A program made the position numbers and the translations under genes. A model generated the notes under the pieces. That model did no database searches and was not told the DNA's origin. It saw nothing but the letters and a program-made list of their open reading frames with translations. Below, piece after piece: positions 6,594 to 41,850 of a DNA stretch of 51,275 bases. Location of the stretch: positions 1 through 51,275 of the IMG/VR virus record IMGVR_UViG_3300030107_006445. The stretch is one strand, 5' to 3'. This DNA is from a virus. Its lineage: Duplodnaviria > Caudoviricetes. The number at the start of each line of letters is the position of its first letter. The stretch's first letter is position 1.

Positions 6594-7082
6594 TTAATTA
6601 TCATCCATTACCGATAAATCTCGACCTGTGCTAGAAGCACTTTGGCGATCTTGATGAATCGATAACCCTGTGTTTCGTCCTAATGCCTCTAGGTCAGCAG
6701 AAACTGATTCATTTTGCTCTGCGTTTCTGCCGTGATAATAGTCCTTCATCTTGCGATGAGTTTCTACTGGCATCTCACAAAGCATCATGCCTTCGACCCC
6801 AATCATACCAGACCACTGTCCGTGGTTTATGGTAGGAAATCTTGGATCTTTAACAGTACTTGCTGGCCTTGGCTCCCAACCTGCACGCATACGTTTAAAA
6901 ACGTTGTCGGGTGTTTCTTTACCTTGAATCGAGGTAGCTATCCATCGTTGAACATACCCAGGACGAGCTTCGGGAGCGTCCAACAATGATGGTGGTTTCC
7001 ATGCAGTTTCTTCGCGAGCTTGTTGCTCACGTTTTGGTTGTCGTTGTTCTTCTGCTCGAACGTTTCTTTTGTTAACCATCAC
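6594..7082 (-). CDS. Conserved head-module hypothetical protein
   Basis: WKPPSLLDAP..RWI..GWEP motifs; between scaffold and capsid genes. Confidence 0.6.
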   Translation of the reverse strand: MMVNKRNVRAEEQRQPKREQQAREETAWKPPSLLDAPEARPGYVQRWIATSIQGKETPDNVFKRMRAGWEPRPASTVKDPRFPTINHGQWSGMIGVEGMMLCEMPVETHRKMKDYYHGRNAEQNESVSADLEALGRNTGLSIHQDRQSASSTGRDLSVMDDN

Positions 7083-7990
7083 TATGATCTCCTGTTATTT
7101 TTATTCTGAGAACGAATTTCTTGGGCATACACCTTCAATGCATTCTCATCTGTTATACCAAGTTCTCTAGCCATGTTTAACTGGTCTCGAGTGATCTGAA
7201 CTCTGTTGCCCTTGTAAGGAGATCCGCCAGCAGTTGGGGCGACTGGATTCCTGCTTTTGACCTTCTTTTGTGGACTCTCATTTTTTGAGTATAACTCTGG
7301 ATGGACTTTTTGTAAACGAGTATCTAATTCTCTGTAATAGCTGTCGTCGTTTTTATCATATCCTTCCAGCTCCAACTGTACATCAATAGCCCTAGCAGAA
7401 GAACTCTGGCGTTCGTAACCAGAGGAATTGAACCACTGGTTTCTATCATGCCAGACATATGCTTTTGGCGGACTCTGAGGGACTTGCTCCTCTACCACTT
7501 GAGGAGGAGGTTGTTGTTGCTGTAAGTGACGGGTTGTTTCAGCCACTTTTATTGCTGCACGCATATCAGCAAGCTGTTCTGTAAATTGTAGTTGAGCTGC
7601 GGAGTCTCCCTCTTCTATGGATTTGGCCAATGCAGACTTAGTCTCATTGTATCTCTGCTCAAACTGTGTCCTAGCATTGTTTTCAGAGCCTTGCTCAAGA
7701 CGACTCAGCCTTTCTTCCAGCGATTTGTTAACATTTCGAAACTCTTCCGCCTCTGCTTCTGCTTCACGCCTCTGCTCTACCAGCTTATTGATTCGCCTCT
7801 GAACTCTTTGACCGTATTCTTCTTTGTCTGGCTTCTCAGCTTTCGCTTCAACAGGCTCTTCTTTCTCAACAGGCTCTTCTTTTTTCGATTGTTGTTCTTC
7901 TACTATTTCTATTTCAAAGCCACTTTCTGCTTTGGTCTTTTCTATTTCTTGCTCTATTTCAGCAAGCACTTCGTTTTCATTGGTTGACAT
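7082..7990 (-). CDS. Putative capsid scaffolding protein
   Basis: E/K/Q-rich coiled coil (VQRRINKLV); C-terminal MARELGI..YA motif; position. Confidence 0.65.
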   Translation of the reverse strand: MSTNENEVLAEIEQEIEKTKAESGFEIEIVEEQQSKKEEPVEKEEPVEAKAEKPDKEEYGQRVQRRINKLVEQRREAEAEAEEFRNVNKSLEERLSRLEQGSENNARTQFEQRYNETKSALAKSIEEGDSAAQLQFTEQLADMRAAIKVAETTRHLQQQQPPPQVVEEQVPQSPPKAYVWHDRNQWFNSSGYERQSSSARAIDVQLELEGYDKNDDSYYRELDTRLQKVHPELYSKNESPQKKVKSRNPVAPTAGGSPYKGNRVQITRDQLNMARELGITDENALKVYAQEIRSQNKNNRRS

Positions 7991-8016: not shown

Positions 8017-8421
8017 TTATGGAACGTATGCGGCAACTTCTACACCTTCTGGGATGATAGAAGTTATCTCGTCATCATTCAAAAGTAAAAATTTCACACC
8101 ATTTACCACTAATTTCTGGCCTGCATATTTACCATATGTTACTTTCTGGCCAATAGATGGTGATGATGTGCGCCAACGAGCACCAGTGTCTCTGTCTCGG
8201 TAAGCCAAATCGCCCATGGCAGCCACAACACCACAAGCAGTCAGATATTCTTCGTTCTGAATTGTTTCAGTCGGAAGAAAAATGCCTCCTTCGGTCTTTT
8301 TTTTGGGCTCATGGGGCTGAATTAAGACTTTCCAATTCATAGGAACTGGGAGTTGGTGTGGACCAATTGTGGAATTGGTTTGTTCGTCTGTATAAATTTG
8401 CTCAACATGTGGATGAGTCAT
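8017..8421 (-). CDS. groES: GroES-like co-chaperonin
   Basis: P.NWKVLI, KTEGGIFLP mobile loop, YGKYAG, LLNDDEI. Confidence 0.88.
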   Translation of the reverse strand: MTHPHVEQIYTDEQTNSTIGPHQLPVPMNWKVLIQPHEPKKKTEGGIFLPTETIQNEEYLTACGVVAAMGDLAYRDRDTGARWRTSSPSIGQKVTYGKYAGQKLVVNGVKFLLLNDDEITSIIPEGVEVAAYVP

Positions 8422-8624
8422 GTTTTTTCATCCTCTTCTTTATCTATTTGTTTAAAAATGTCGTCAATAACGCCACAAGCTCTTTCTAGACCTTCTGCGA
8501 TACCAACGTGTTTTTGGTACATGTGAAAATCGTTTAACCGACCTTCAACCATACCATTAGCAATCTCAGCTTTGTGTCTTTTGAGATGAGCTTTGATTGA
8601 ATTCAGTAAGTCAGTTACTGTCAT
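8418..8624 (-). CDS. Hypothetical protein
   Basis: 68 aa, YQKHVGIAEGL; ATGA-coupled to groES. Confidence 0.65.
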   Translation of the reverse strand: MTVTDLLNSIKAHLKRHKAEIANGMVEGRLNDFHMYQKHVGIAEGLERACGVIDDIFKQIDKEEDEKT

Positions 8625-8689
8625 TGGCCATTTCTACCTTTCCAGACATCGAAATTCCAGTCACATAGACTTTCACTTCTTGTCCTGTT

Positions 8690-8830
8690 TTAGTATCCTT
8701 TTTTAACTTTAGTTGTTCCTTTCTTCCGCTTCTTTGTTTGATTTTTTTGAGTAGCTCCTTTGTTTGATTTCTTTCCACGTTTCACAGATCCTCCTCCTTT
8801 CATTAAAGATTTAAAGTTTGTTCTATTCAA
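8690..8830 (-). CDS. Small Lys-rich basic protein (not in ORF track)
   Basis: TTG start overlapping the upstream gene's end; MNRTNFKSLMKGGGSVKRGKK...KKGY, 46 aa. Confidence 0.4.
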   Translation of the reverse strand: MNRTNFKSLMKGGGSVKRGKKSNKGATQKNQTKKRKKGTTKVKKGY

Positions 8831-9467
8831 TTCTCAACCTCTGTTCTTGAGTTGATTCGGAATCACTTTGTTTCAAAGCTGTTCCTGCTCCTCCTGCTGC
8901 CAATTTACCTTTAATTGACCAAAGGAATGCACCCAATGCTGGAGCATATGGAATAACTCCACCTATCGCTGTCATGCCTATAACTCCAGGATCTGTAGGT
9001 GTTTCCTCTAATGGTGCGTCTGAATAGCCTATCCCATAAAGTGCTCCGGCTGCTCCACCTAACAAAGATTGCAATAAACGGCTTTTCCTGACTTTTTCTA
9101 CAGCTTCTGGTAAATATCTTCCCGCAGTTCTCCAACCAGCTGTTGCGACATTTGCTGCTCCTGCTGAGTCTGCTATAAGATCCGTCACTGGATATAACTC
9201 AGCGAATTCCTTATACTTAGCACGCTCTGCATCTCTGGCACTTTCGTAATCGCCTCCTGATAATTGTGAAATTCTACCGACGATCTCGTCAGAATAGCCT
9301 CCTGTCAAACCATGACCAAGAGACCTTGCTGTTCCATATAAATACTCAGAAGGAGACAAAGAACGATCTGTCAAACCATATTCTGCTCCTGAAGCTGCAA
9401 CTGTCGCTGAAGCTAATGCATCTGCAAGTTTGCTGTTTTCCCTGTTTTTAATGTATTTCCTAACCAC
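8823..9467 (-). CDS. Putative internal virion/ejected protein with MVRK leader
   Basis: Gly/Ala-rich hydrophobic helices; GLTGGYSDEI motif; MVRK start shared with the leader family. Confidence 0.5.
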   Translation of the reverse strand: MVRKYIKNRENSKLADALASATVAASGAEYGLTDRSLSPSEYLYGTARSLGHGLTGGYSDEIVGRISQLSGGDYESARDAERAKYKEFAELYPVTDLIADSAGAANVATAGWRTAGRYLPEAVEKVRKSRLLQSLLGGAAGALYGIGYSDAPLEETPTDPGVIGMTAIGGVIPYAPALGAFLWSIKGKLAAGGAGTALKQSDSESTQEQRLRIE

Positions 9468-10669
9468 TATCTATACCTCTGGAATCTATTGGCAAACCTT
9501 CCTGCTGCTGGAGGGAGTCCGCCTATTGCTCCTTGCTGATTTCCTGTTACTTGCTGACCAACTGTTGTTGCTGGTGCTAAATCTGAAGTTTGACGTCCTG
9601 TTACTTGCTCACCAGTTTGCTGCGCTTCTTTCTGTTGTTTTTGCTGCTCCATATAATCCTTGTAAGCGTCATACGTCTCATATGTAGTTCCAGTAGTATA
9701 GAGAGCGTCTAAAACATTAATGTCCAATGGACCAAGTTTAACACTAGGAATTTTTGGAACCTTTGGGGTAGGTGCGTTGAGTTGTGCTTGCAATTGGCCT
9801 GTGCCAAACTGGCCACTAGCCCACCCAGCTGTATTCGCTGCTGTTTGGCCAGCATAATAACCTTCCATGCCAGCTTGAAATATCTCCCAAGGATCTTCTC
9901 CTGCTTCTGCTGATTGGGCAGCATTCCCTGCTGCGGCAAGATAGGCAGCATAAGGTTGTGCTCCAGGAACTGTCAATCCAATAGTCACTCCTATAATCGT
10001 TCCCAGATTACTTTTTAAAAAGTTTCCGACCTTGCCGAAAAAACTCGAATACTTTGTTTGTTGTTTCTGGCCTGTTCCTCTTAAACCATAGTCTGCTGCT
10101 CTAAGAACAGTGTCAATTTTTAAACCTTTGGGGATGTTGCCTGTTTCCAAATATGTTACAAGATCTGGGCTGCGTGTTGATGCCCAATCCAGCATTTTTT
10201 CATAAATTTCTTTCATTCCGCCACTTTTGTCGTCGGCAAGATATCGCTCTCTCCCCAAGTTTACATATTTCTCTATGTTTCGTTCGTTCCAGCCATAATT
10301 TTTTAGTGCCAAACCTTCTACATTAACCCTTTGCCCATCAATTGTGATGGCTGCTGAGTATGGTATATTCTTAGCATCAAATGTGTTCTTCTCGATGTGA
10401 TCCATCAACGGCACATTAGCCCAATTGTAAGTGGCCTTCCCAAAAGAACCAGAACCTTTGCCAGCTTTTTCCATTCTCATTGAAGCACTTAACTTATCGG
10501 CAACATCCTTCGAAAACATGCCTCTGCCGCTTTTCTGGCCGATTGGGTCTGGCCTTTTATATCCCTCGGGGACAAAGGTGGGATTTTGCGCAGCAATTTG
10601 AATGTTTCTTAGGAAAGGATTCTTTATAACTGTCCCGTCAGCTGCTCTTATCTCTCTGACTTTTGTCAA
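9467..10669 (-). CDS. Putative internal virion protein
   Basis: 400 aa; Gly/Ala-rich membrane-like segment; Gln-rich tail ending GAIGGL. Confidence 0.5.
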   Translation of the reverse strand: MTKVREIRAADGTVIKNPFLRNIQIAAQNPTFVPEGYKRPDPIGQKSGRGMFSKDVADKLSASMRMEKAGKGSGSFGKATYNWANVPLMDHIEKNTFDAKNIPYSAAITIDGQRVNVEGLALKNYGWNERNIEKYVNLGRERYLADDKSGGMKEIYEKMLDWASTRSPDLVTYLETGNIPKGLKIDTVLRAADYGLRGTGQKQQTKYSSFFGKVGNFLKSNLGTIIGVTIGLTVPGAQPYAAYLAAAGNAAQSAEAGEDPWEIFQAGMEGYYAGQTAANTAGWASGQFGTGQLQAQLNAPTPKVPKIPSVKLGPLDINVLDALYTTGTTYETYDAYKDYMEQQKQQKEAQQTGEQVTGRQTSDLAPATTVGQQVTGNQQGAIGGLPPAAGRFANRFQRYR

Positions 10670-10857
10670 ACTCTTCCTCCAGAAAGCTCTCTTGCTAGTA
10701 TTTGAAGAACTTCATTGAAACTTTTGTCAAGCTCCTTTGCTGCTCTGGCAAATTTTCTCGGACTTATTTCAGAGCTTTTTATGCCTCTGCGCTCTAAAAA
10801 ACTTTTTGCAGCTCTTATTTCTGCTGCTGCAACTTTTTTAATCGCTGCTCTGGCCAT
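10666..10857 (-). CDS. Small basic hypothetical protein
   Basis: 63 aa, K/R/A-rich helical, coupled. Confidence 0.6.
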   Translation of the reverse strand: MARAAIKKVAAAEIRAAKSFLERRGIKSSEISPRKFARAAKELDKSFNEVLQILARELSGGRV

Positions 10858-11812
10858 TAATGCCTCCTAGTGCTCCGGCAACACCAACACCTCCAGTTAC
10901 ACTTGCCATTATGTTACCTGATTTTCTGTCTTCTGGGTTAAATTTTGCATAAACTGATCTAACATCGCCCTTATCTGGGTAAAAAAGAGCAGCCGTTCCT
11001 GCCTCATCAGTAAAATATCCTCTGAATCCTAGATTTTTCAAAGCAGTTTGTAACTCTGGGATCTCCAGCACCCTCCAAGAGCCTCTCTCGGCCCACTGCT
11101 CCAATGACCCACGTGGAAACTTTGGCATACTATGAATTATATTTTCTATTTGCGCTTTTTTCTCAGGATCAATGCTCCCCAATCTTTTTACATGCTCAGC
11201 ATTGTTAGGATCAAACAGCTTTTCCGTCTTTATTTTAACTGGGTAAATTGTTGTTCCTGGAATCATTGGGACATCATAGTCTGCTTCTAGCTCTCGCCCC
11301 ATTTTTGCCAGTTCGTAGGCTTCATCTTTGACCTTTTGCGTTGTGCTTTGTATTACTTCTGCGCTTCTAGAGGCAAAATTTGGGTTATTTTCAGCTTGTA
11401 TGATCCAACTAGCCAGTTCGTTCTCCATACGATCGAGGTCTTTGTTTGCTTGGATAAAATATTCCACTCTCTTCTTAGCTCGTGCACGATCCGACACAAT
11501 TTTGGCATAATCTTTTTGTCCTGGCTTGGGCATTGGTCCCTGCGTTTTCTCTAAAATTGCATCCGTCCATTCATCCATCATCCCTTTATTAATGTAATCC
11601 AAATAATAATCAGAGCTCGTAACGTAAGTCGCACCAAGGTGTGGGTGATATTGTTCAACACCTCCGAAAACAGAACGTGCTGTGGATGCTCTTGGATTAA
11701 ACACCTCTATTTCTGGGTTACGACTTACGTGATAATACGTTTTAGGATCGAACTCCTTTTTATATGCATCTCTTAATGAGCTTAATGCTCCTGAAATTAA
11801 TTTTCTCACCAT
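10838..11812 (-). CDS. GAL-leader protein with ADP-ribosyltransferase-like (ART-PolyVal-type) domain
   Basis: YYHVS, ATYVTS, IYPVKIK, GFRGY, VRS..AKFNP..NI pattern; leader MVRKLISGALSSL. Confidence 0.55.
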   Translation of the reverse strand: MVRKLISGALSSLRDAYKKEFDPKTYYHVSRNPEIEVFNPRASTARSVFGGVEQYHPHLGATYVTSSDYYLDYINKGMMDEWTDAILEKTQGPMPKPGQKDYAKIVSDRARAKKRVEYFIQANKDLDRMENELASWIIQAENNPNFASRSAEVIQSTTQKVKDEAYELAKMGRELEADYDVPMIPGTTIYPVKIKTEKLFDPNNAEHVKRLGSIDPEKKAQIENIIHSMPKFPRGSLEQWAERGSWRVLEIPELQTALKNLGFRGYFTDEAGTAALFYPDKGDVRSVYAKFNPEDRKSGNIMASVTGGVGVAGALGGINGQSSD

Positions 11813-12003: not shown

Positions 12004-12134
12004 TATTTCTTCTTCCTTTTCTTGTAACCCGAAGCGTGAATGGCTCGACCTTGTCGCTCTGCTTCAGCTCTGGTTTTGTAAACCTTGCCCGACTTGCCCC
12101 AACGATAACCACCTTTGACTTTTTGTACTGGCAT
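12003..12134 (-). CDS. Small basic phage protein (not in ORF track)
   Basis: MPVQKVKGGYRWGKSGKVYKTRAEAERQGRAIHASGYKKRKKK, 43 aa; TAATG coupling. Confidence 0.7.
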   Translation of the reverse strand: MPVQKVKGGYRWGKSGKVYKTRAEAERQGRAIHASGYKKRKKK

Positions 12135-12616
12135 TATCGTTGTTTTGTTACCATTTGCCCATGAAGCATTTGGGTGTGCGGGTCGCTCAAAAATCTACCA
12201 ATTTCTTGGATAGTAGGATCAGAAGAATCCAGCATATCTTGTCCGACTTCCCAAACTTCGTCTGGATCCATGTAATTTTTGATAACCTTTAAATTTTGAA
12301 GATCATCTAGAACTCTTAAAAGAAGATTTTCATTAATCGGTTCTTCTTCGATCAAGCTCAAAAGATATTTTTCAGTTTCATAATCATCAAAGTCTCCTTT
12401 CGGGACGCTCAATGTTACATCTTCCTCGGTGATTCTTGGACCCAAAGATTCAAAATCCGCATCAAGATAATCTTCGGGCATAACTTGATATTTTCCACTA
12501 TACCTATTGCCTGTTTCTCCGATTATTTGGGCCTTGTTTACATCTTGCATGTCTAAGTGGTAAGGCAACTTGCCAAGTGCACCTTCTACAATCTTCCCAA
12601 GCATTTTTCTGGCCAT
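12134..12616 (-). CDS. Acidic GAL-leader protein
   Basis: MARKMLGKIVEGALGKL followed by a D/E-rich body. Confidence 0.6.
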   Translation of the reverse strand: MARKMLGKIVEGALGKLPYHLDMQDVNKAQIIGETGNRYSGKYQVMPEDYLDADFESLGPRITEEDVTLSVPKGDFDDYETEKYLLSLIEEEPINENLLLRVLDDLQNLKVIKNYMDPDEVWEVGQDMLDSSDPTIQEIGRFLSDPHTQMLHGQMVTKQR

Positions 12617-12899: not shown

Positions 12900-13092
12900 A
12901 ATTAGATCCTTTCATTGCTTGTATGACGTTGTTTGTTGCGCTGTTACCGTTGATTCTTCCTCTGATCTCTTCAACTTTGTTCATCAGATAAACATTCATC
13001 TGGTCAGCCGACATTGGTTGGTCAGGCGATTGTTGTTGCACGCCAGAAAATGCCTGAGGATTAACTGGGCCAAACATAAACTCGTTATACAT
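12886..13092 (-). CDS. Hypothetical protein
   Basis: 68 aa overlapping the portal stop. Confidence 0.5.
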   Translation of the reverse strand: MYNEFMFGPVNPQAFSGVQQQSPDQPMSADQMNVYLMNKVEEIRGRINGNSATNNVIQAMKGSNYGQR

Positions 13093-15643
13093 CAGATTGT
13101 TCTCTGTCTAATTGTATTTCAGCAGCATTCTTTTCACGTTCCATCTGCAAGTCAGCAGCACTTTTCTCTCTGTCCATCTGCAAGTCAGCAGCATTCTTTT
13201 CACGTTCCATCTGCATTTGCATCGCGTTCTTCTCACGCTCTATTTGCAATTCTGCTTGCAGTTCTACGATTTTCGCCTCTAGGTCTTTGTTTGCTTTGAT
13301 TTGATCGATTTGTATATCTGACTGGGCTTTAGCTTGGTCGATTTGTATATCTGATTGAGCTTTTGCTTGGTCAGATGCAATTTCTGACTGAGTCCTTTGG
13401 ACAAGTGATTGAGCTTCAAGTTCAGCGAGTTGTTGCGCATATTGTAACGGATCCTGTTGTTGTTGCTGTTGTTGTTGTCCAGCGATTGCTTGTATGGGTT
13501 GCATTTGCGGAGCTTGCTGGACGACTTGTGCTGCGCGAGAGCTTATTATCATATCCAGCTCTGGGTCAATGTCTTGGAACTGGAATTTTGGATCCCTCAG
13601 GTTAGGCACATCAGGCAACGGAACACCGATGCTGGCCTGCATGCGAGTCCGATAAAGCAACGCAATATGTTCCGCAATATGGGACAAGAGTATCGGTGCC
13701 ACTTGGCTACCCATAGTAGGATTGCCAGCCAAAGACGGATCGTTCAGAAACTGCATATGAACCATTATGTGCGAATCGTGGTCTTGCTCGGGGAATGCCT
13801 TGATTGCTTTGCCATACATGACCGTCATATTTTCATCTATCGGGTCAAGTCTTGGTGCTTCCTCGGGTGGCTTTAGAACTTCGTCTATATTAGGTATCCG
13901 AATCGCTTCATACATTCGCTTGTATGCTTCGTACAAGTCATGAAGTTCTGGTGCTGAACGAGCCATTTCCATAACTGCTTGAGCTTGTGCGATGCGTTGG
14001 GCTGTGCTAAAGATATTCGGATCACTAACTGGTACCACATCAATACGGCCATCAAAGTCTGCCGCATAAATGATTGTGTCTTGGCCTGATGCTGAGAACT
14101 CTATCTGCTCTGGTAAATTGTCAGCATTCAATTTGGCCAGCATTCTGAACTCTTGGCCTTGAGAGTTGTGCAAACGTTTGTGAATTGCGGAGAATGACTT
14201 ACTGCCTTGCTCAATCAGTGCCACCGTTGACCCGACTGGTGCATTAGGATTAACGTCGCCAACATTAAGATCTGCCGTGGCAGCAAACCTTCTACCAGCG
14301 TCAACCATAAATCCCATCAGCTGAAACAATGTTCCGCTTGGTTCTTTGAATGGTAGCGGCATGATTGCTTTGCCAACATCGTCAACCGTTGCCTCTAAGT
14401 CAACAAACTCTCCTGGATTGACTTCTATATCGCCACCGCTCACTCTGCCTTTTAGCTTGAAGCCACCTTGCATATTTGAAAATGCAGCAGAGTCCAGCAA
14501 CGCTCTCAAAGCACCAGTGGCTGCTTTACCCAAACCGCCAATCATATGGTACAGGCCAAAACCATAAAATCCAGTTCCAGGAAGGAATTTATAAGACACA
14601 AACCAGTCTAGCCGTTGTTGAGTTTCGTCTTGCTCGTCCCAGTTGCGGCGAACACTCACAATACGATCTGAGTCATAGTCAATCGTCACAACATACGGCA
14701 ACGCAACCACTTCATCATCCTCTTCCGAAGACATTCCATCAACGCCATCAAAAGTTTCATAAACATGCATCTCGATCAGCGTTATAATCTCGTCTTCCGA
14801 ATCATCAGCAGAAGGATCAACACCCTCAATGTCTTTGGTTGTATTGCCTGCTGGATCTATGCTTGAGCCAGAATACTTGACCGAGAGATAATATCCAGCT
14901 TCAACATATCGGTTGTAATCGTTGCGAGGCATCCGTATCAGATGTGAGTATCTTGGCGACGTTTGCAAGTCCTTGCTTTCTGGCGCAACAACGAAGTCCT
15001 CAGCCTTAACAAACTGTGAACATTGTCTGTTTAAGTTCACATCCCACCAGACCTTTTTAAATGTGTTGCCGACCAGTGGTAATTGAAACAACATCTGGTC
15101 TAGGTCAGGGAAGTATTCGGGCATCTCTTCTGTGATTTGGTAATTCATAAAATCACGTACACGTCTTGCCTGCTCTTCAACTTCTTCAGTCGCTTCACCA
15201 ACGATGGTTGTTTTAACTGGCCCACCAGAAGGATAAAGCTCGGCCACTGCTCTGGCATTAAACTGTGTTGCAGCTTCCGCAATCAATGGATGAACAATAG
15301 TGCTCAACCCACGGCTCGCTCTAATTTCCTCAGACTCTTGCAACCCACCTTCTGGGTCTAATGTCTTCAGCCCACTCTCATAACGACGTTTCCATTCGCT
15401 ACGAGCAGACTCGTCAAGTTCGTAAAATCTTAACAGTGTGGATGATTTGCGTTTGAGTTCGTTTTCATCAATGACTTCTGCTAAGTTTTGGTCAAACTGT
15501 GTTTCCTGTTCTTCAAGTCCATCCAAGTCTGGATCACCAATCAGCACATCTTCGCCAAAATTCTCAACCATAAGATCATCAGCAGGTGCTCCTTCCGAGA
15601 ACAACGGCAACTGTCTTGGGATTCCTAACTGCTCTTCAGCCAT
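13085..15643 (-). CDS. Portal protein (P22-like, long C-terminal coiled coil)
   Basis: 852 aa after TerL; HPLIAEAATQF, FKKVWWD, GFYGFGLYH, LLDSA motifs; Q-rich helical tail. Confidence 0.88.
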   Translation of the reverse strand: MAEEQLGIPRQLPLFSEGAPADDLMVENFGEDVLIGDPDLDGLEEQETQFDQNLAEVIDENELKRKSSTLLRFYELDESARSEWKRRYESGLKTLDPEGGLQESEEIRASRGLSTIVHPLIAEAATQFNARAVAELYPSGGPVKTTIVGEATEEVEEQARRVRDFMNYQITEEMPEYFPDLDQMLFQLPLVGNTFKKVWWDVNLNRQCSQFVKAEDFVVAPESKDLQTSPRYSHLIRMPRNDYNRYVEAGYYLSVKYSGSSIDPAGNTTKDIEGVDPSADDSEDEIITLIEMHVYETFDGVDGMSSEEDDEVVALPYVVTIDYDSDRIVSVRRNWDEQDETQQRLDWFVSYKFLPGTGFYGFGLYHMIGGLGKAATGALRALLDSAAFSNMQGGFKLKGRVSGGDIEVNPGEFVDLEATVDDVGKAIMPLPFKEPSGTLFQLMGFMVDAGRRFAATADLNVGDVNPNAPVGSTVALIEQGSKSFSAIHKRLHNSQGQEFRMLAKLNADNLPEQIEFSASGQDTIIYAADFDGRIDVVPVSDPNIFSTAQRIAQAQAVMEMARSAPELHDLYEAYKRMYEAIRIPNIDEVLKPPEEAPRLDPIDENMTVMYGKAIKAFPEQDHDSHIMVHMQFLNDPSLAGNPTMGSQVAPILLSHIAEHIALLYRTRMQASIGVPLPDVPNLRDPKFQFQDIDPELDMIISSRAAQVVQQAPQMQPIQAIAGQQQQQQQQDPLQYAQQLAELEAQSLVQRTQSEIASDQAKAQSDIQIDQAKAQSDIQIDQIKANKDLEAKIVELQAELQIEREKNAMQMQMEREKNAADLQMDREKSAADLQMEREKNAAEIQLDREQSDV
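13110..13390 (-). repeat. 33-bp / 11-aa coding tandem repeats in the portal C-terminus
   Basis: (REKNAADLQM[DE]) about x5 and (DQAKAQSDIQI) x2-3. Confidence 0.85.
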
Positions 15644-17141
15644 ACATGCTCATCCTATCTTGTGGGATTATGTCGTCTTCTTCGTAGTCAGTTGAGTGGC
15701 TGACAGACCAACTCTTGCGCAACCTCAACCATGCCTGTGTGCAAGTGTCAACAATGTCGTCATTATCGCCAGCAGGGAATGCCGCACAAATACTGATTAA
15801 ATCTTTTGCCCAATTACGTTCTGCGGGATACCATATACGGCCATCTTCCAGCAACGCAGACGAAGCATGGGCACGAGCTTCTTTATCTCTGTCTGGTAAA
15901 TACTCAAGAACTGGAATGCCAGCCATGCGTAAATCTTGCAACAAACTCTGGCCACTGGCTTTCTTTTCAATCAGCACTGCATCAGGCTCATAATCTTGGT
16001 ACGCCTCTTGAGCAAGTTTCCTCAATTCTGGATAGCTTACTCTATCGTACCACATTTCTAAAACAATTGCATTCATTTGACCATGTTTGCGAAACACAGC
16101 CCACGTGGTTCGGGCTGAATAAGAACTCTTTTCTTTGGTGGAAAAAGCAGTGTCGTACGACTGTAGCACATACTCAATGTTTGGCAGTTCTTTCTTGTCC
16201 CATGGCTTCCACCAGTCTTCTCTTAATATGCCGCCACCTTTAGGCATCGGTCGTTGCTGTAGCTGTCCAGCAGAAGCATACACTCCAAGACTTCGTTCGA
16301 GATTTTGTAATGTTCTATCGTCTATCCTTTCTGGCCAAAGAAGCTCATCTTCTTTTGTTCTTTTGTCTTTAAATCCTAACGAGGACTTGGTTTGGTATGG
16401 GTGATCCTGTTCATACCTAGCAGGCAAACACAAGTGATCCCAGTCTTCATGCTCATTGGCTAACACGTGCCCAGTTAGATCATTCTCATGAACACGTTGC
16501 ATGATTATTATGAAGGCACCAGTCTTTGGGTCATTAAGCCGAGTTTGCATGGCTTGATCCCACCACTCTAAAACGCCAACTCTAACGGTCTCAGACTCAG
16601 CCTCCCGAACATTGTGCGGATCATCAATTATAATGATGTCGCCACCTTCACCAGTCAACGCACCATCAACAGAAGTCGCTATCCTGTATCCTGTCTTGTC
16701 GTTTTCAAATCTTTGCTTTTGGTTCTGGTCAGAAGTCAGCTTAAACTGTTCGCCAAAGTGAGCTTGATACCAAGGACTGTCAATCAGCCTTCGACACTTC
16801 AACGAATCCCTAATAGACAAAGACAGCGCATAAGATGCAAACAAGAAACGTTTGTCTGGCTGGATGGTCCAAGTCCAAGCAGGCAACGCCACAGCAACAC
16901 TGATAGACTTCATGTGCCTTGGTGGGATGTTGATGATCAGTCGCTTTATGTCACCTTCAACAACTGCCTGCAAATGTTCAGACACCGCATCAATGTGCCA
17001 GTTGTCGTAAAACTGCCGTCCTGACTCAATCGTCTGCCAAGACTTCTTGGTAAACTCCTTCAGCGACCTCTTCATCTTCTCCGCTCGAACTTCCGTCAAT
17101 GACAGCGTGTTCAAGAACTCGTTCAATTGTGGTGAGGTCAT
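15636..17141 (-). CDS. terL: Terminase large subunit
   Basis: Walker A-like IPPRHMKS, Walker B IIIIDD, coupling MQR, nuclease YDTA and DDIVD. Confidence 0.95.
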   Translation of the reverse strand: MTSPQLNEFLNTLSLTEVRAEKMKRSLKEFTKKSWQTIESGRQFYDNWHIDAVSEHLQAVVEGDIKRLIINIPPRHMKSISVAVALPAWTWTIQPDKRFLFASYALSLSIRDSLKCRRLIDSPWYQAHFGEQFKLTSDQNQKQRFENDKTGYRIATSVDGALTGEGGDIIIIDDPHNVREAESETVRVGVLEWWDQAMQTRLNDPKTGAFIIIMQRVHENDLTGHVLANEHEDWDHLCLPARYEQDHPYQTKSSLGFKDKRTKEDELLWPERIDDRTLQNLERSLGVYASAGQLQQRPMPKGGGILREDWWKPWDKKELPNIEYVLQSYDTAFSTKEKSSYSARTTWAVFRKHGQMNAIVLEMWYDRVSYPELRKLAQEAYQDYEPDAVLIEKKASGQSLLQDLRMAGIPVLEYLPDRDKEARAHASSALLEDGRIWYPAERNWAKDLISICAAFPAGDNDDIVDTCTQAWLRLRKSWSVSHSTDYEEDDIIPQDRMSMYG

Positions 17142-17580
17142 TATCTGTTAATTGTGTTATGTCTACTACTTTTCTCTCTTCAACTTGTGCTGTGACTTCG
17201 ATTGCTTTTAAATCTGGGACACATTTGCCAAGCAATGTTTTCGCCGCAAGAACTCTTAAATCAGGGTCTGCGGATATTCGCCCCATCTGTTGGACATTGC
17301 CAGTGCTGTCTTGGCTGTAGACAGGGAACATTTCTTTACCATTCATCACCTGCGACAAAAAGCCAACAGGGTCTGCTTGACCCATGATCCAATTGATTGT
17401 TGTGTGATGGTTCCATTTGTAAGGCTTTTCACGCTTTTTCTTCTGGTTTTTCATAGGCTCAACAGACTTGAACCTTCCGTCCCATGCTTCTGGGTCAATC
17501 GGCGGCCCATCTTTAACAGGTCGTTGCACCTGTACTTTGGTCTCTGAAGCACCATTTTTTGGCTTTCTGCCCATGTCCAC
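17026..17580 (-). CDS. Putative terminase small subunit
   Basis: Directly upstream of terL (116-nt overlap); LLGKCVPDLKAIEV motif. Confidence 0.55.
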   Translation of the reverse strand: MDMGRKPKNGASETKVQVQRPVKDGPPIDPEAWDGRFKSVEPMKNQKKKREKPYKWNHHTTINWIMGQADPVGFLSQVMNGKEMFPVYSQDSTGNVQQMGRISADPDLRVLAAKTLLGKCVPDLKAIEVTAQVEERKVVDITQLTDNDLTTIERVLEHAVIDGSSSGEDEEVAEGVYQEVLADD

Positions 17581-17761: not shown

Positions 17762-17971
17762 TTAAAAAGTTGCTGTTGTTTGCCTCACCCACCTCGGCTC
17801 ACAATGAGCCTTAACCGGATGCCTGCTGCGAATGTCGTAGTTGCTTCTGCCCTGATAATTTAACCTTTTGGCTGTAATGGTACAGTGTTTTAGTTTTGAA
17901 AAATAAATCGGGTCTTGACCTCGGATGGGGTCACCATTAGATAACACAACCAGTAAGTAAACCAGCTTCAT
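17762..17971 (-). CDS. Small hypothetical protein
   Basis: 69 aa, hydrophobic N-terminus, two Cys, ATGA-coupled. Confidence 0.55.
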   Translation of the reverse strand: MKLVYLLVVLSNGDPIRGQDPIYFSKLKHCTITAKRLNYQGRSNYDIRSRHPVKAHCEPRWVRQTTATF

Positions 17972-18525
17972 CTTAGTTTTACAGTTTTGAAAATACGAAT
18001 TTCTGAAGCATCCTCGACATCATCTGGGTTGAGGTGTTTATAAAAATATCTTATTTTTAATTCCTCATAATTTGGATGTCGAATGCCATCATACCCAGCA
18101 GCCAAAGCAGCTGTTTCATCCTGCCCTAACTCATTCCAAATTTTACGGCCTTGCTCTGTTTCAATATCTATTACTTTAAAAGGCCCAATGGCTTCATACA
18201 CTCGGCCTTCTGGTTTGTCTCCTAACTCTCCTCTGGTAAAAGATTTTGAAAGCACTGGGTCATCGCTTAAATGTACCGATGGATCATGAGCACCTTTTGT
18301 TCTTCCTATGCTTTTACTACTGGTGGTGCTTACTTCTGTGAGATCAGTTTGCGGAGATCCATGATATAGTCGATCAAATTCTACAACACCCTCAACGTCA
18401 GTTGTTTTAGCAGCCGACTTCCTTAACTGCTTAGCTCCTTTGGGCAATGCTCCAACTGCAGCTTTACGTTTTGGATCGAATCCAGCCAATCCTTCTAAGG
18501 CACTTTTAAGAACTTTCCTTACCAA
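17968..18525 (-). CDS. Leader-array member 5: ART-PolyVal-like domain, truncated Tat-like leader
   Basis: LYHGS, VHLSDD, GRVYEA, AGYDGI, EIRIF; leader MVRKVLKSALEGL..DPKRKAAVGALPKGAK. Confidence 0.65.
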   Translation of the reverse strand: MVRKVLKSALEGLAGFDPKRKAAVGALPKGAKQLRKSAAKTTDVEGVVEFDRLYHGSPQTDLTEVSTTSSKSIGRTKGAHDPSVHLSDDPVLSKSFTRGELGDKPEGRVYEAIGPFKVIDIETEQGRKIWNELGQDETAALAAGYDGIRHPNYEELKIRYFYKHLNPDDVEDASEIRIFKTVKLR

Positions 18526-18541
18526 CTAACTTTCCTCTGCT

Positions 18542-19690
18542 TCATTTAGTATATTTTTTGACAAGCTCTGCTTTATACGCTTCAGGATCTTGCCGTGCTA
18601 ATTCTACTTTTCTAGCAGCCTCTTCAACTTGTGCTCTTAATCGAGGCACATTCTCTAGTGCTTCTACTGCTTTTGGCGTTGGGACGTCGTCAGGCAGGTC
18701 TTGGTAGATAACTTTGTTCTTCCTTAAATAATCAGCCAGTTCTTGTTTGCTCAGCCCATAGTCTCGCATCATAGATTCAAGAAAGCTCGCATAGTCTGCA
18801 TATTCTGGACTATCCCCATCAAGGTTCCAACCCTCAAGTCCATCATCCGCTGCTCCTCTGAGCGGGACTTTACCTTCAAACCAAGGCTCTAATTTTGCCC
18901 TTTCCCAAATATCATCCTTAGTAAATTGAATTTCATAAGAAGGATCGGCTTCTCTTGCTTTCTTCATTACATCTAGTGCTTTTGAAGCATCATCAGCATC
19001 CATCCACTTAGCAACTTCATCGCTTTCCAACAGCTCCCAACTCCAGTCTTTGAAATTTACCAGTCTTGTTGGCATCCTTTCCATGGCATCAAACTGATCT
19101 ATCATACTATCAAATTCTCTCGCAGGAGCATCTGTAGGGAGCTTCTGGTCTCTTGCTAATTCGTCCCACTCCTCCGGAGAAGACTTAAAAAAATCTTTCC
19201 ATCTTTGATTGTGTTCAGCCAAATCTTCAACCGTCAGCCCACTTGATGCATATTTTTCATCATAATCAGACTTTATCAAAGGAGTAGAATCTATGAATTC
19301 TTCAGCAACCTCGTCAAAACTTTTCCCAGTTGCTTCCATTTTATTTTGAATGGATTTGTTTAGTATTCTGTGGACGTCTTTTGTGGAGAAAATTCTCTGA
19401 AGATCATCATCATCATCATAGTATGCTGCAGCGTCATGAAAATCTCTCGAAAAAATGTTGGCTCTGAATGTTTTGCGGAAAAATTCTTCCTGCAAAGATT
19501 TGAATGCAGGCACGTCTTTTATGTTTTCCGGCAACTTTTTAGCAACCGACTTCATGAGCATCTTAGCCCCTTTGGGCAATGCAGCCAACGCTCCAACTGC
19601 AGCTGTACCTTTTAATATCTTCCTACGCTTCTCGTCAAATTTGCCGCCAGTCAATCCCTCTAAGGCACTTTTGATAACTTTCCTTACCAT
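18542..19690 (-). CDS. Leader-array member 4: acidic protein with Tat-like leader
   Basis: KRRKILKGTAAVGALAALPKGAK; full-length paralog of 20603-21703. Confidence 0.75.
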   Translation of the reverse strand: MVRKVIKSALEGLTGGKFDEKRRKILKGTAAVGALAALPKGAKMLMKSVAKKLPENIKDVPAFKSLQEEFFRKTFRANIFSRDFHDAAAYYDDDDDLQRIFSTKDVHRILNKSIQNKMEATGKSFDEVAEEFIDSTPLIKSDYDEKYASSGLTVEDLAEHNQRWKDFFKSSPEEWDELARDQKLPTDAPAREFDSMIDQFDAMERMPTRLVNFKDWSWELLESDEVAKWMDADDASKALDVMKKAREADPSYEIQFTKDDIWERAKLEPWFEGKVPLRGAADDGLEGWNLDGDSPEYADYASFLESMMRDYGLSKQELADYLRKNKVIYQDLPDDVPTPKAVEALENVPRLRAQVEEAARKVELARQDPEAYKAELVKKYTK

Positions 19691-20602
19691 TTAATCAATG
19701 TTCTCTCTTAGGCCAAAAAATGGGCTTATTTCAGAATCTTTCTGTCTTTGAAAAGTTTCCTCCCAAGCCTTCTTCTCAGCTTCTCTGTCTACCAAGTGTA
19801 ATTCATTCCAATTTGCTGGACGAACTGTATCGACAAACGTTTTATCAAAATCGCCAGAAAGAAGACGTGACGTTTCTTCCATACTATCTACACTTGCCTC
19901 CATATAATCAAAAACATCAGCACGACTCATGTTGTAAGGTTCGAGAGATTTTATGTACTCGATCAAATCAGGATCATCAATTTCATTTAACGTTATTTTT
20001 CCATCAACCCAATCATCAAGCGATTTATTTTCATAAAACGAATGCAACTTAGACCTCATCCCTGCATCAACAAGCCTCCCTGCATCCATTGGATCGCCTG
20101 TCCCTGCATCAAAGAATCCAGAAACCTTCTCGCCTTCTAACTCACCCACCTCAGCAGTGACTCTGTCTTCCAGGAGACGCATTGCTTGTGGAGTGTTCAC
20201 GTCTTTTAAAATCTCTGGACGAAGCAGCTCCTGAGCAAGTTCGTTTTCATCAAGACCACTCAACCCAAGTTCTTCCAGACTTTTTCCTGTTCGTTTGCTA
20301 ACCTGTGCAGCAATGGCGTCCAGCTCCATTGGATCGAAGCCGATTCTCTTATCTATATTCCTAACAGCGTTATCAAACGCCTGATCATAAAGGTCTTTCT
20401 TAAAATTGATAAAATAAGGAGATTCATGAAATGGTCCAACAGGAATTTTCGTCAATTCATCAGCTGCAGGTTTCATAGCTATCTTAGCTGCTTTGGGCAA
20501 TGCTGCTAATGCCCCTGCTGCGGCTGTACCTTTTAATATCGCTCTGCGTTTTGGATCAAACGCACCACCGAGCGCACCAGCAATCTTCTGTCTGATTTTC
20601 AT
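19691..20602 (-). CDS. Leader-array member 3: acidic protein with Tat-like leader
   Basis: DPKRRAILKGTAAAGALAALPKAAK. Confidence 0.75.
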   Translation of the reverse strand: MKIRQKIAGALGGAFDPKRRAILKGTAAAGALAALPKAAKIAMKPAADELTKIPVGPFHESPYFINFKKDLYDQAFDNAVRNIDKRIGFDPMELDAIAAQVSKRTGKSLEELGLSGLDENELAQELLRPEILKDVNTPQAMRLLEDRVTAEVGELEGEKVSGFFDAGTGDPMDAGRLVDAGMRSKLHSFYENKSLDDWVDGKITLNEIDDPDLIEYIKSLEPYNMSRADVFDYMEASVDSMEETSRLLSGDFDKTFVDTVRPANWNELHLVDREAEKKAWEETFQRQKDSEISPFFGLRENID

Positions 20603-21703
20603 CTAATCCTCAAAAATATAATCGAACATTTGTTGGTCAACATTTGCATCTTTTGATCCTTGTGGTTTTGCGGTAGATATATTCGCTAAATCAAGCTCTT
20701 TTTTTATTGCTTCTGCATCTTCTGCAAGCTCAACAATTTTAGGCATTGGCGCATCTTCAGCCAGATGTGTATAAATGACGTTGTTTTCCCGTAAATACTC
20801 AGCCAGTTGCTGTTTGTTAAGTCCATAATCTTCCATCATGTTTGCAACAAATTTGTAAAGATCTACTCTGTTATTCAAATTATGATCTTGCCACTCACCC
20901 ATATCTGTAAAAGATCTTTCCCCTTCAAGCCACTCTTCTATTCTCGGTGTATCAATAAGTCCAGTGCCATCTTCAGTGTCACCAAAAAGATCTGTTTTCG
21001 GATCAGGAACCCAAGCATTACTCATATAATCAGGGTCAATTTCTTTTGCTTTGTGAACTTTTTCAAATGCATCCGTCCACTCATCACCGTCAGCCCACTT
21101 GATGACCTCATCATTCATCAGAAGTCTGTGATTCTGCCTCCAATGAGCAGACTTGTGAAGAGCACTGTCTAATAACTCTTCATAATCTTCCTCTGTCCCA
21201 CTTAGCAATTTGCGATAATATGGTTTGTTTTCTACCCACTCATTTTCTTTATTACGCATTTGATATTCAATGTCTTTCAATTCATCAGCGTTATAAAGAA
21301 AATCATCCAGAACTTCGTCAGAGCTTTGACCAGTTGCTTTCATTTTATTTTTCATTGCGTTCTGGTAAATCCTTCTAATATCTTCTGCTGAAAAAATTTC
21401 AAAATCAATCTCGCCATCTTCCCAGTAGACATTTCTAAATTCTTCACTGCCATGACGATAACGAGGATTCATCAAAAATTTAAACGTACCACGCAAAGCA
21501 TCTCTTTCTAAGACCTTGAATGGTTTTGCATTTTGTATGTTTTTCGGCAACTGTTTAGCAACCGTTCCCATTAACTTTTTAGCTCCTTTGGGTAATGCGG
21601 CCAATGCCCCTGCAGCTGCAGTCCCTTTCAGTATCGCTCTGCGTTTTGGATCAACCTCTCCACCTGTCAACTTATCTAATGCACCGCCAATAAGTTTTTT
21701 CAT
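20603..21703 (-). CDS. Leader-array member 2: acidic protein with Tat-like leader
   Basis: DPKRRAILKGTAAAGALAALPKGAK. Confidence 0.75.
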   Translation of the reverse strand: MKKLIGGALDKLTGGEVDPKRRAILKGTAAAGALAALPKGAKKLMGTVAKQLPKNIQNAKPFKVLERDALRGTFKFLMNPRYRHGSEEFRNVYWEDGEIDFEIFSAEDIRRIYQNAMKNKMKATGQSSDEVLDDFLYNADELKDIEYQMRNKENEWVENKPYYRKLLSGTEEDYEELLDSALHKSAHWRQNHRLLMNDEVIKWADGDEWTDAFEKVHKAKEIDPDYMSNAWVPDPKTDLFGDTEDGTGLIDTPRIEEWLEGERSFTDMGEWQDHNLNNRVDLYKFVANMMEDYGLNKQQLAEYLRENNVIYTHLAEDAPMPKIVELAEDAEAIKKELDLANISTAKPQGSKDANVDQQMFDYIFED

Positions 21704-22320
21704 TTTGCAACGCCTTTTGACCCGTCGGGAAGTGTTACTTCAAGACCTTCATATCTTCCGAGCACATCTCGAAGATACATTGATATCTCTTTGTTGGAGT
21801 ATCCACTTTGTTTCATTTCATCTATAAAATTGTCAACAAAACTGAACTCGCTTACCTCTTTTGTTGGAACTGATTTAGCAACATAATCCTCAATAGGCAT
21901 TTCATCAAAAACCTGATCTAAAAATGGCAATAATTCCTGTTCTGCCTCAGCACTTCCTGGAGCGTTGAAATAGCTATCATAAATTTTATCTAGCTCTTTG
22001 GGATTAAGTTCTGAAACAGATTTTACTTCTCTGCCTATGTCTTCTGAAATCTCATCAAGGAATATTTGCTCCTCTAATATATTCTCATCCAAAAGAACTT
22101 TTTTCATTTGTGGGAGGTCTGTGATTTGTTTTGCTGCCATTTTTGACAAATCAATTTTTTTCGAAAAAGGTTCGCCAACTTCATCAATCACTTTCCGAGC
22201 AACTTTTGGTGTGACAGCAATCGCCCCCAATGCTCCTGCACCTTTTATAAGGTCACGTTTGCTTGGGTCAACTTCTCCACCCATCAGCTTGTCTAATGCT
22301 CCACTGATAAGTTTTTTCAT
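21700..22320 (-). CDS. Leader-array member 1: acidic protein with KR-variant Tat-like leader
   Basis: Start reassigned to ATG 22320 (GAGGTG RBS, ATGA overlap); DPSKRDLIKGAGALGAIAVTP. Confidence 0.72.
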   Translation of the reverse strand: MKKLISGALDKLMGGEVDPSKRDLIKGAGALGAIAVTPKVARKVIDEVGEPFSKKIDLSKMAAKQITDLPQMKKVLLDENILEEQIFLDEISEDIGREVKSVSELNPKELDKIYDSYFNAPGSAEAEQELLPFLDQVFDEMPIEDYVAKSVPTKEVSEFSFVDNFIDEMKQSGYSNKEISMYLRDVLGRYEGLEVTLPDGSKGVAK

Positions 22321-41388: not shown

Positions 41389-41850
41389 TCATTTTATTAG
41401 TAACGACATTCCGCCAGCAATCAGTGCTATGCCAACAGCAAGAACTGCCGCGCCGATCATCATCTCCTGCATCTGCCTTTTCGCTCTGCGTCGCCTGAAC
41501 TCCTCCTGTTCCCTAGCCTGTATAATCTTCTTCTCTGTCGCCACAAACTCAAGGTAGACGGATCTACCGTGGGTGAGCATGAGCATTGTACGAATCTCGG
41601 TACGCATCCGTTTTTCGGCTTGTCGTGCGGCAACGGCTTTTAATGCTAACTGGGCTGGATCGCCTGTTGCTTTAGCGTACCAAGGTGGATTTTCTGCTTC
41701 CCTACACCCTTCTTTAAGATCCGCAATGCTGGAGTACCACTTTCCCATCTGAAGTGCGATACCCTCTACATCTTGCCCCATCTCAACCGCTTTCTTTATT
41801 CCTTTGAAAGCTACGTTGGCGGCAGATAGAGCGGCAGCGATCTCAAGCAT
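41389..41850 (-). CDS. Coiled-coil protein with C-terminal transmembrane helix
   Basis: 153 aa; hydrophobic C-terminus. Confidence 0.65.
   Translation of the reverse strand: MLEIAAALSAANVAFKGIKKAVEMGQDVEGIALQMGKWYSSIADLKEGCREAENPPWYAKATGDPAQLALKAVAARQAEKRMRTEIRTMLMLTHGRSVYLEFVATEKKIIQAREQEEFRRRRAKRQMQEMMIGAAVLAVGIALIAGGMSLLIK

Follow-up and report, generated by a model that had tools for sequence, protein, structure and literature searches.

A Tat-like leader shared by five adjacent genes of a marine phage is more likely a tag for virion loading than an export signal

Introduction

A close described parallel to the genes analyzed here is the capsid targeting sequence (CTS) of phage T4. This conserved N-terminal peptide of the diverse internal proteins IPI–IPIII and related head proteins directs their entry into the prohead, where they become part of the scaffolding core; their injection accompanies that of the DNA (PMC3012670); the T4 ADP-ribosyltransferase Alt is packaged and injected as well (PMC5512222). 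Loading of diverse head proteins by means of a tag is therefore already known from T4. We analyzed a DNA stretch of 51,275 bp (the window), which is a complete IMG/VR virus record (IMGVR_UViG_3300030107_006445) with a completeness estimate of 94%, and in particular an array of five genes, g1–g5, on its minus strand (17968–22320). The array products share a leader similar to the signal peptides of the twin-arginine translocation (Tat) pathway; on the evidence given below, loading of proteins into the virion is a likelier function of this leader than export.

Several other systems are relevant for comparison. Phages P22 and T7 have ejection proteins, the scaffold of P22 carries a coat-binding helix-turn-helix, and capsid targeting is a feature of the HK97 protease. 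In encapsulins, short Gly/Leu-rich peptides at the C-terminus or, for part of the cargo, at the N-terminus bind the interior of the HK97-fold shell and define what is enclosed; the Family 1 targeting consensus is SDGSLGIGSLKRS, TVGSL is found at the N-terminus of some ferredoxins, and GPTGLGT recurs in Family 2 cargo (PMC8346489). Effectors of the polyvalent and MuF types, including ADP-ribosyltransferases (ARTs), are encoded beside portal and head genes and are predicted to be packaged and injected (Iyer et al. 2017; PMC5512222).

The leader resembles the T4 CTS as a short N-terminal peptide common to diverse, fast-evolving, and otherwise unrelated proteins. The likeness is by description only, and sequence similarity is not expected. 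Unlike the CTS, the leader is bipartite with a Tat-like second part, and its core motif also occurs at C-termini; neither a prohead protease nor a cleavage site was recognized here, packaging is what we infer, and the phage is a 51-kb relative of HTVC023P and CRP-901 rather than a T4-like myovirus. The body of g5, which may be ART-like (a lead only), would parallel the packaged Alt. Regarding encapsulins, tails such as ..VGTLGALGAVDGESSN and N-terminal GALxxL mark genes beside an HK97-fold capsid gene; this likeness is one of type only (alternating small and hydrophobic residues at protein ends), and the shell in question is that of a phage head into which DNA is packaged, whereas encapsulins form a metabolic compartment. 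The hypervariable interval between the portal gene and a GroES-like gene, with ART-like proteins and very large proteins of 789–1360 amino acids (aa), recalls the polyvalent and MuF-type effectors. It differs from them in that mostly separate small proteins with common terminal tags, not one fused polypeptide, are encoded; no MuF domain was found, and the ART-PolyVal match was sub-threshold and absent from the window. What appears to be new is the bipartite Tat-like leader, the presence of the core motif at both termini, the genome-specific variants of the tag, and a phage group without an earlier description of this kind.

The five-gene array and its leader

The array genes abut or overlap by a few bases and are located upstream of the terminase genes. 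In the order of transcription, they are g1 (21700–22320; 206 aa, or 214 aa from an upstream ATG at 22344), g2 (20603–21703; 366 aa), g3 (19691–20602; 303 aa), g4 (18542–19690; 382 aa), and g5 (17968–18525; 185 aa, TTG start), all on the minus strand. An initial annotation, made from the sequence alone, had reported five adjacent, closely packed genes with a Tat-like leader, three of them with RR, one with KR, and one with the core deleted. This was confirmed: g2–g4 carry RR, g1 carries KR, and in g5 the N-terminal helix and PKGAK are kept with a shortened Gly/Ala core (KRKAAVGALPKGAK).

According to the alignment, the leader common to all five genes is 32–43 residues long and consists of two parts: a short N-terminal helix that is basic and amphipathic (M-x-[KR]-K-[LV]-I-x-[GS]-A-L-x-x-L), and a basic pair followed by a Gly/Ala-rich stretch. 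The second part holds a second GALxx[LIV] motif; this motif is present in both halves of the leader. In g2, g3, and g4 the sequence KRR-x-IL-KGTAA[AV]GALAALPK[GA]AK stands behind the basic amphipathic helix (MKKLIGGALDKL, MVRKVIKSALEGL); the leader of g2 reads MKKLIGGALDKLTGGEVDPKRRAILKGTAAAGALAALPKGAK, and the KR leader of g1, with its two GALxx[LIV] motifs, reads SKRDLIKGAGALGAIAVTPKVAR. The basic pair is found within KRRAILK in g2 and g3, KRRKILK in g4, SKRDLIK in g1, and KRK, without the following hydrophobic stretch, in g5.

The leader had also been described as conserved at the DNA level near 19571, 20492, and 21587. These positions do match the segments recognized by the Pfam TAT_signal model (see below), but the nucleotide conservation was moderate. 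Over the 26-codon core of the leader, nucleotide identity was 66/78 between g2 and g3, 54/78 between g2 and g4, and 60/78 between g3 and g4; in the g2–g4 pair, 9 of 26 third positions agree versus 22 of 26 residues. Over the first 126 nt identity was 49–67% versus 47–57% over the next 300 nt. Third codon positions are close to saturated whereas the peptide is kept; this indicates that the leader has been under selection, as opposed to recent gene conversion, and that its conservation acts at the peptide level.

The leader is the best conserved region of proteins that have elsewhere diverged to the limit of detection. A profile search in 1.84 billion representative proteins yielded 27 matches of the leader family at E ≤ 0.001, and the leader was kept in those relatives; it is not a chance feature. 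No blastn match to the array DNA was found among named phages, and no tblastn match among them to g2, to the product of the 324-aa gene described below, or to protein P0035. Scans of IMG/VR with the family alignments gave no relative; a first metagenome scan gave none and a second gave four loci. A double-glycine bacteriocin leader (..LTGG) was considered and dropped because distant family members have TD in place of GG.

Regarding the origin of the array, two relatives with an 82–84% identical terminase large subunit (TerL) have only small genes upstream of TerS, and four of five near-complete relatives carry one or two members of the leader family. Two of the member sites (G001 and G002) were converted to locus coordinates, and both are inside the portal-to-GroES interval. 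The five-gene block is therefore a head-module family that has been locally expanded and relocated. In the reading favored below, the five genes represent a lineage-specific expansion of hypervariable, presumably late accessory proteins of the head module.

The N-terminal helix on other head-module genes

Two further genes of the window, both on the minus strand between the portal and GroES genes, encode the N-terminal helix without the RR segment. One of them (12134–12616, 160 aa) has the helix tag MARKMLGKIVEGALGKL with GALGKL at residue 12. The other (10838–11812, 324 aa) has the N-terminal tag MVRKLISGALSSL, a YYHVS domain, and a Gly/Ala C-terminal tail ..VAGALGGINGQSSD, as found by a hidden Markov model (HMM) of the tag, by alignment, and by the motif count. 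The tag HMM was trained only on sequences from outside the window and was scored on 410 combinations of starts and open reading frames (ORFs). All seven tag genes of the window, namely these two and the five located directly upstream of TerS on the same strand, were within its nine best distinct ORFs (E 0.009 to 10), the top match being 12134–12616 (E 0.009); single E-values are weak because the tag is short.

Tagged genes of relatives sit between the portal and the GroES or scaffold genes. In the metagenome relative L010, five adjacent genes (8450–11471) of the portal-to-GroES interval all start with MA[GA][P]KSKIV, and the RR/KR segment is present in two of them. In the cultured Roseobacter phage CRP-902 (L104, OQ401624.1), gp65, gp66, gp68, and gp72, located in the same interval, start with MANP[VI]K(G/D).., have no RR, and differ in their bodies, which are unrelated; gp65 is annotated as a nuclease. 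The C-terminus of gp65 reads ..VGYGALQSVGEDDGESGS. The variant of the tag is specific to each genome and common to that genome's own tagged genes. A short N-terminal peptide was therefore found on otherwise unrelated proteins of one phage three times: in seven genes of the window, five of L010, and four of CRP-902. The helix-tagged proteins that are unrelated in the remaining sequence are g5, the products of 10838–11812 and 12134–12616, three of the five L010 proteins, and the four CRP-902 proteins.

The GALxx[LIV] motif at protein ends

GALxx[LIV] occurs 17 times in the 70 genes of the window, whereas 1.4 occurrences are expected from within-protein shuffles (about 12-fold enrichment), and most copies are only a few residues away from an end of the protein. 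The 800 distinct plus-strand ORFs of 80 related loci contained 75 copies versus 16.9 expected; no more than 20 residues from a protein end, 32 copies were found versus 2.9 expected. Minus-strand control ORFs of the same loci had a single copy versus 3.7 expected and none in a terminal position. A Gly/Ala/Leu stretch with an acidic tail behind it forms the C-terminus of many unrelated proteins encoded in the portal-to-GroES interval.

Four consecutive minus-strand genes of the ejection module (44217–47669) all carry the motif. The first in transcription order (46716–47669, 317 aa) starts with MAEAGALTGL.., with GALTGL at residue 5, and the second (46287–46688, 133 aa) ends in ..EMGALGGIV; the product of the latter starts with Met/Pro/Glu-rich repeats (..MPPEAMPPE..). 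The third (45421–46287, 288 aa) matched PHROG 4287, 'DNA ejection protein' (E 1.5e-9), and has GALEGL at residue 242, GALGTL at residue 274, and ..IGALGTLGSAYALAKA. The fourth (44217–45407, 396 aa), listed from the tag HMM and the motif count, starts with MALPTTTGALANLGK.

The possibility that the RR/Gly-Ala segment of the leader and the C-terminal Gly/Ala tails represent a single motif was rejected: an HMM of the RR segment matched no tail at ≥6 bits, and only the shorter GALxx[LIV] core is common to both.

Likeness of the leader to Tat signals

Tat likeness was assessed with PF10518 (TAT_signal; curated cut-off of 22.7 bits) and TIGR01409 (cut-off of 16.7 bits). In scans of whole proteins, PF10518 scores were 16.9 for g1, 20.6 for g2, 20.1 for g3, and 20.6 bits for g4 (E 4e-4 to 6e-3); g5 gave no match as a whole protein or as a six-frame segment. 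When segments were scored alone in a six-frame scan, g2 (24.7 bits, 21590–21646), g3 (24.7 bits, 20495–20551), and g4 (24.6 bits, 19574–19627) were above the cut-off and g1 (20.2 bits, 22210–22266) was below it. TIGR01409 gave 10.1 bits for g2, below its cut-off, and g1, g3, g4, and g5 were unlisted. Across the family, PF10518 matched 12 of 23 members at E ≤ 0.01 (best 4.1e-7), TIGR01409 matched 16 of 23 at E ≤ 1 (best 9.6e-6), and TIGR02811 matched 9 of 23. The Tat architecture proposed in the initial annotation is partly supported: TAT_signal matches four of five genes and TIGR01409 matches at the level of the family, with whole-protein scores of the array genes below both curated cut-offs.

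All members in the family alignment have the second Arg, and nearly all have Lys at +4. The initial annotation had counted a lack of conserved RR in related leaders as evidence against a Tat role; the pair is not strictly kept, being RR in 17 of 22 members and KR in 5. To our knowledge, KR is rare in natural Tat signals. Distant members read [ST]RRxF[LM]KGAGA.., which is near the textbook Tat motif. The motif starts at residues 19–22 in the array genes and no later than residue 35 in 16 of 22 family members; in the others it starts at residues 43, 47, 70, 78, 149, and 228. The uncharged run after the motif comprises 12 residues in g1–g4 and in 12 of 22 members and 4–11 residues in five. The TATFIND rule calls for an h-region of 13 or more uncharged residues. 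As in the c-region of Tat signals, the Gly/Ala region of the leader leads into a Pro and a basic stretch. A conserved Ala-x-Ala site near the end of the Gly/Ala stretch was not seen in the alignments; the best candidate for a signal-peptidase site, [ST]-[VI]-A followed by K and located about 11 residues downstream of the Pro, is absent from g1. The maximum mean Kyte–Doolittle hydropathy was 1.35–1.76 over 13 residues and about 1.0 over 19.

The RR segment is not restricted to leaders. When its HMM was run on 81 related loci, 12 additional distinct proteins were matched, and every match was encoded on the structural strand, with none on the opposite one. In eight relatives, the RR/Gly-Ala segment starts at residues 141–253, behind a conserved N-terminal domain of 110–150 aa (pairwise E 1e-8 to 1e-111); these are L045 4763–6031, L067 3545–4594, L092 506–1384, L053 4593–5585, L076 5216–6454, L087 5369–6502, P0024, and P0028. 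With this position, the segment cannot serve as an N-terminal signal peptide there. The domain contains ..AFRPDG[RK]LNIPTQAAADYIA.QG.. in most copies, and the two members scanned against Pfam, those of L045 and L076, gave no match.

By these criteria, the likeness to Tat signals is real yet borderline. The leader has in common with them an n-region of basic character, then RRx[FI][LM]K, a Gly/Ala stretch of weak hydrophobicity, and finally Pro with basic residues; it differs from them in the borderline scores, the presence of KR, the short uncharged stretch, the lack of a conserved Ala-x-Ala site in the alignments, the internal position of the motif in eight relatives, the deletion of the core in g5, and the strong conservation beyond RR. 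A narrow literature search revealed no account of Tat-like leaders in phage head modules and no phage family exporting several late proteins by Tat. In the available text of a review on Tat transport from 2026, phages come up four times, and on none of these occasions is a phage-encoded substrate named (PMC13673990).

Bodies of the array proteins

The initial annotation had the proteins diverge sharply behind the leader. This is correct for g5, the body of which is different, but g1–g4 are paralogues with a shared C-terminal motif, as judged from sequence comparison. With the leader removed, g2 and its full-length paralogue g4 had 30% identity over 332 columns (BLASTP, E 1.4e-34); the similarity between g3, the body of which is divergent, and g4 was marginal (E 0.005), and all other pairs were weaker than E 1. 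The C-terminal motif (..MEDYGLSKQELADYLRKN..-like) was found in g1–g4 with HMM E-values from 3e-10 to 5e-16, all four being in the training set of the HMM. The proteins g1–g4 are acidic (net charge from −12 to −22), and g2–g5 contain no Cys.

The AlphaFold2 model of g2 (mean pLDDT 68) has an all-helical body, and leader residues 1–47 form a low-confidence extension (pLDDT below 50). Foldseek searches with this model gave a best E of 1.1 against PDB and 0.31 against BFVD. A filovirus VP30 C-terminal domain fold for g2 (VIA-align wide search, best Z 5.5) was rejected, this value being below the noise level of the tool for helical models; a helix-turn-helix suggested by GerE/LuxR-type rows reached Z 3.0–3.6 only, which is not evidence, and no fold was assigned. 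Scans of the array bodies with Pfam, PHROGs, and NCBIfam gave nothing besides the Tat models, and ten large proteins of the interval and the ejection module had no Pfam match. Coat binding of g1–g4 in the manner of a scaffold, suggested by a likeness of their C-terminal motif to the conserved C-terminus of the scaffold-like protein (..MARELGITDE..LK.Y..EI), was considered and also rejected: among 177 window ORFs, the motif HMM matched g1–g4 only and not the scaffold-like protein.

The body of g5 includes LYHGS and aligns with head-module proteins containing YYH[GV][ST], including the product of 10838–11812 and its relatives. A relative from this YYH family (L019 4566–5195) gave 23 bits with ART-PolyVal (PF18760; cut-off of 31.2) at E 1.5e-4; g5 itself had no match at E ≤ 1, and a six-frame scan of the whole window gave none. 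The neighbor of g5 in a protein atlas (score 0.85) has ART-PolyVal in 37% of its members, which is a lead only. A profile of the YYH family against PDB sequences gave nothing below E 0.58. Since the fold prediction for g5 made without an alignment was unusable (pLDDT 39.8), the ART idea draws on sequence leads, and the g5 body may be called ART-PolyVal-like only as a lead.

Possible role of the leader

By analogy with T4, we favor the reading in which the terminal motifs are address tags through which a variable group of proteins would enter the procapsid and be delivered together with the DNA; we regard it as tentative, with a likelihood somewhat short of even. In such a scheme, the short end-motifs would bind an assembly component, which might be the scaffold, the portal or core, or the capsid interior; otherwise unrelated proteins would thereby be recruited into the procapsid and would exit with the DNA at infection. 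The cargo of the array would comprise the four acidic helical paralogues g1–g4 and one possibly ART-PolyVal-like body (g5). The Tat likeness of the second module could then be a convergence arising from a basic pair with a small-residue helix, or it could reflect a secondary, membrane- or Tat-directed role after delivery. A peptide kept despite diverged bodies and near-saturated third positions fits a specific binding function. A capsid-loading or ejection tag that mimics a Tat signal was the second choice of the initial annotation; the evidence now places it first. Observed are the shared modules, their genomic locations, the enrichment at protein ends, and the internal RR segments of relatives; that the tagged proteins enter the virion, what they bind there, and that they are ejected are predictions.

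Several points weigh against loading of the array proteins into the head. The combination of [ST]RRxF[LM]KG, a Gly/Ala stretch, Pro, and a basic region is a specific Tat likeness that a loading tag does not explain, and three array segments are above the Pfam cut-off when scored alone. The array is placed upstream of TerS, outside the portal-to-GroES interval. GALxx[LIV] was defined after the sequences were seen, which is partly offset by its recurrence in the previously unexamined ejection module; in addition, local Gly/Ala/Leu-rich composition could inflate the count beyond the correction by whole-protein shuffles. The RR-segment HMM gave no match to the C-terminal GAL tails, and the unity of a single motif is thus unsupported. 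No prohead protease was recognized among the proteins of the head and ejection modules, none of the window proteins scanned matched a family of known enzymatic function, and the literature search found no virion proteomics for this phage group. Complex prediction for the capsid and scaffold-like proteins with leader residues 1–60, run without controls, gave a score of 0.00 and a mark of 0.32, which speaks neither for nor against binding.

The leaders might instead be genuine Tat signal peptides or signal anchors, with folded acidic proteins being exported or anchored via the host TatABC late in infection and acting on the envelope in superinfection exclusion, receptor masking, or lysis control. 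We consider this unlikely, but it retains some probability because two independent Tat models recognize the segment, in four of five array genes (three segments above the cut-off) and 12 of 23 family members for PF10518 and in 16 of 23 for TIGR01409, to which the nine TIGR02811 matches can be added. The invariant second Arg with the nearly invariant Lys, the position of the motif within the first 35 residues of most members, and the Pro with a basic stretch in the style of a Tat c-region agree with export as well, and the absence of Cys from g2–g5 means that these are not lipoproteins. However, whole-protein scores of the array genes below both cut-offs, the five KR members, an uncharged stretch too short for a Tat h-region in most members, and the failure to see a conserved Ala-x-Ala site do not agree with it; nor do the eight relatives with the motif at residues 141–253 behind a conserved domain and the review that, in its available text, names no phage-encoded substrate (PMC13673990). 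Export also leaves unexplained why g5 retains the rest of the leader after losing the hydrophobic core, why the same N-terminal helix is found on proteins without the RR segment, and why the Gly/Ala and basic regions are conserved beyond the need of a generic signal peptide.

A weak, Tat-independent membrane element formed by the basic pair and the Gly/Ala stretch could tether late proteins to the inner membrane, either in the infected cell or after ejection, when podovirus-like internal proteins must bridge the envelope. Gly/Ala-rich hydrophobic stretches also occur in head- and ejection-module proteins (9467–10669, 8823–9467, and 41389–41850), and a membrane segment flanked by basic residues would tolerate a location near the N-terminus or in the middle of a protein. 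This explanation seems improbable, as the 11–15 uncharged residues of most members, with their low hydrophobicity, are both too short and too polar for a normal transmembrane helix, the element is absent from g5, and the shared N-terminal helix is left without explanation. Quite improbable is a leader with no targeting role at all, inherited as an oligomerization or interaction domain of one fast-evolving family, with the likeness to Tat signals and to N-termini of other head-module proteins being a coincidence of composition. The common C-terminal motif of g1–g4 as one family, the tiny size of the leader family (27 matches in 1.84 billion representatives), and a heptad-like hydrophobic pattern in the helix would suit such a domain; the occurrence of the helix on proteins unrelated in the remaining sequence, the enrichment of GALxx[LIV] at protein ends across 80 loci, and the retention of the peptide with third codon positions near saturation would not. 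Readings beyond the four named here take up a small remainder of the probability.

If the tags are incorporation signals, virion-delivered proteins of very common marine phages could be recognized by a simple rule at the sequence level, and such proteins are likely early weapons against host defenses. The tag might then also be put to use for packaging foreign proteins in these heads, a purpose that the T4 CTS already serves. CRP-901/902, which are cultured on Roseobacter sp. FZCC0083, carry a version of the tag, which makes the idea testable at the bench. True Tat signals would mean, on the other hand, a phage family exporting several late proteins by Tat. A bolder scheme, which we regard as a long shot, is that heads load a fast-changing arsenal via terminal GALxxL peptides, and that the Tat mimic added in the array engages the host Tat system or inner membrane after ejection, aiding DNA entry or disabling export. 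If so, the GALxxL peptides would act in the way of encapsulin targeting peptides, and phage capsids and encapsulins would be connected by a living link.

Genomic setting and additional features

The terminase of the phage and that of Roseobacter phages CRP-901/902 have 75% identity; the authors describing CRP-901/902 grouped them beside the pelagiphages HTVC023P/HTVC027P (PMC10149686). The phage is a member of an abundant marine group related to HTVC023P and CRP-901; at least 589 relatives of the major capsid gene of the group were found in IMG/VR. The genes concerned form one long minus-strand block, in which three small genes are followed, in the direction of transcription, by the five-gene array, the TerS-like, TerL, and portal genes, unassigned genes, the GroES-like gene, a scaffold-like coiled-coil gene, genes of two conserved small proteins, and the major capsid gene. 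The block runs across the ends of the record into tail genes and the 'DNA ejection protein' module. Almost all genes of the group between portal and scaffold are otherwise uncharacterized.

The TerS-like gene (17026–17580, minus strand), directly downstream of the array, is designated from its position and from the TerS annotation of the matching stretch in CRP-902; it had no family match of its own in Pfam and PHROGs scans. TerL (15636–17141, minus strand) was identified by family matches and comparison with CRP-901/902. The longest TerL ORF overlaps the TerS-like ORF by 116 nt; TerL is annotated as shorter in CRP-902, and its true start in the window may be further downstream. The portal protein (13085–15643, minus strand, 852 aa; phrog_1216, E 7.6e-36) is extended at its C-terminus by a long region in which Gln/Lys-rich units recur (..QAKAQSDIQIDQ.. 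and ..EREKNA..LQM..); these repeats have a coiled-coil-like appearance.

The interval between portal and GroES genes is hypervariable (L010, L015–L087), although capsid proteins are 85–90% identical. Three conserved small proteins (MAEVNVENMEEN.., MA.YKGKKV.LN.PRR.., and MA.A.IKKVAQAEIRAAKSFLE..) occur in it among changing genes, and its very large proteins mentioned above are without a Pfam match. Two minus-strand genes of the window, 9467–10669 (400 aa) and 8823–9467 (214 aa), encode the long Gly/Ala-rich hydrophobic stretches already noted and have no family match; their products might be internal proteins with membrane activity. The interval ends, on its far side, with the GroES-like co-chaperonin (8017–8421, minus strand; phrog_3188, E 3.3e-13), the gene of which is just upstream of the scaffold-like gene; it has 60–72% identity in 18 of 18 relatives examined, and its counterpart in CRP-902 is gp61. 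The role of the scaffold-like coiled-coil protein (7082–7990, minus strand) is suggested by its position and composition, and the HK97-fold major capsid protein is encoded at 5102–6007 (minus strand). ARAGORN detected no tRNA genes in the window. The sign of the GC skew flips near 24 kb and near 42 kb, matching the switches of the coding strand.

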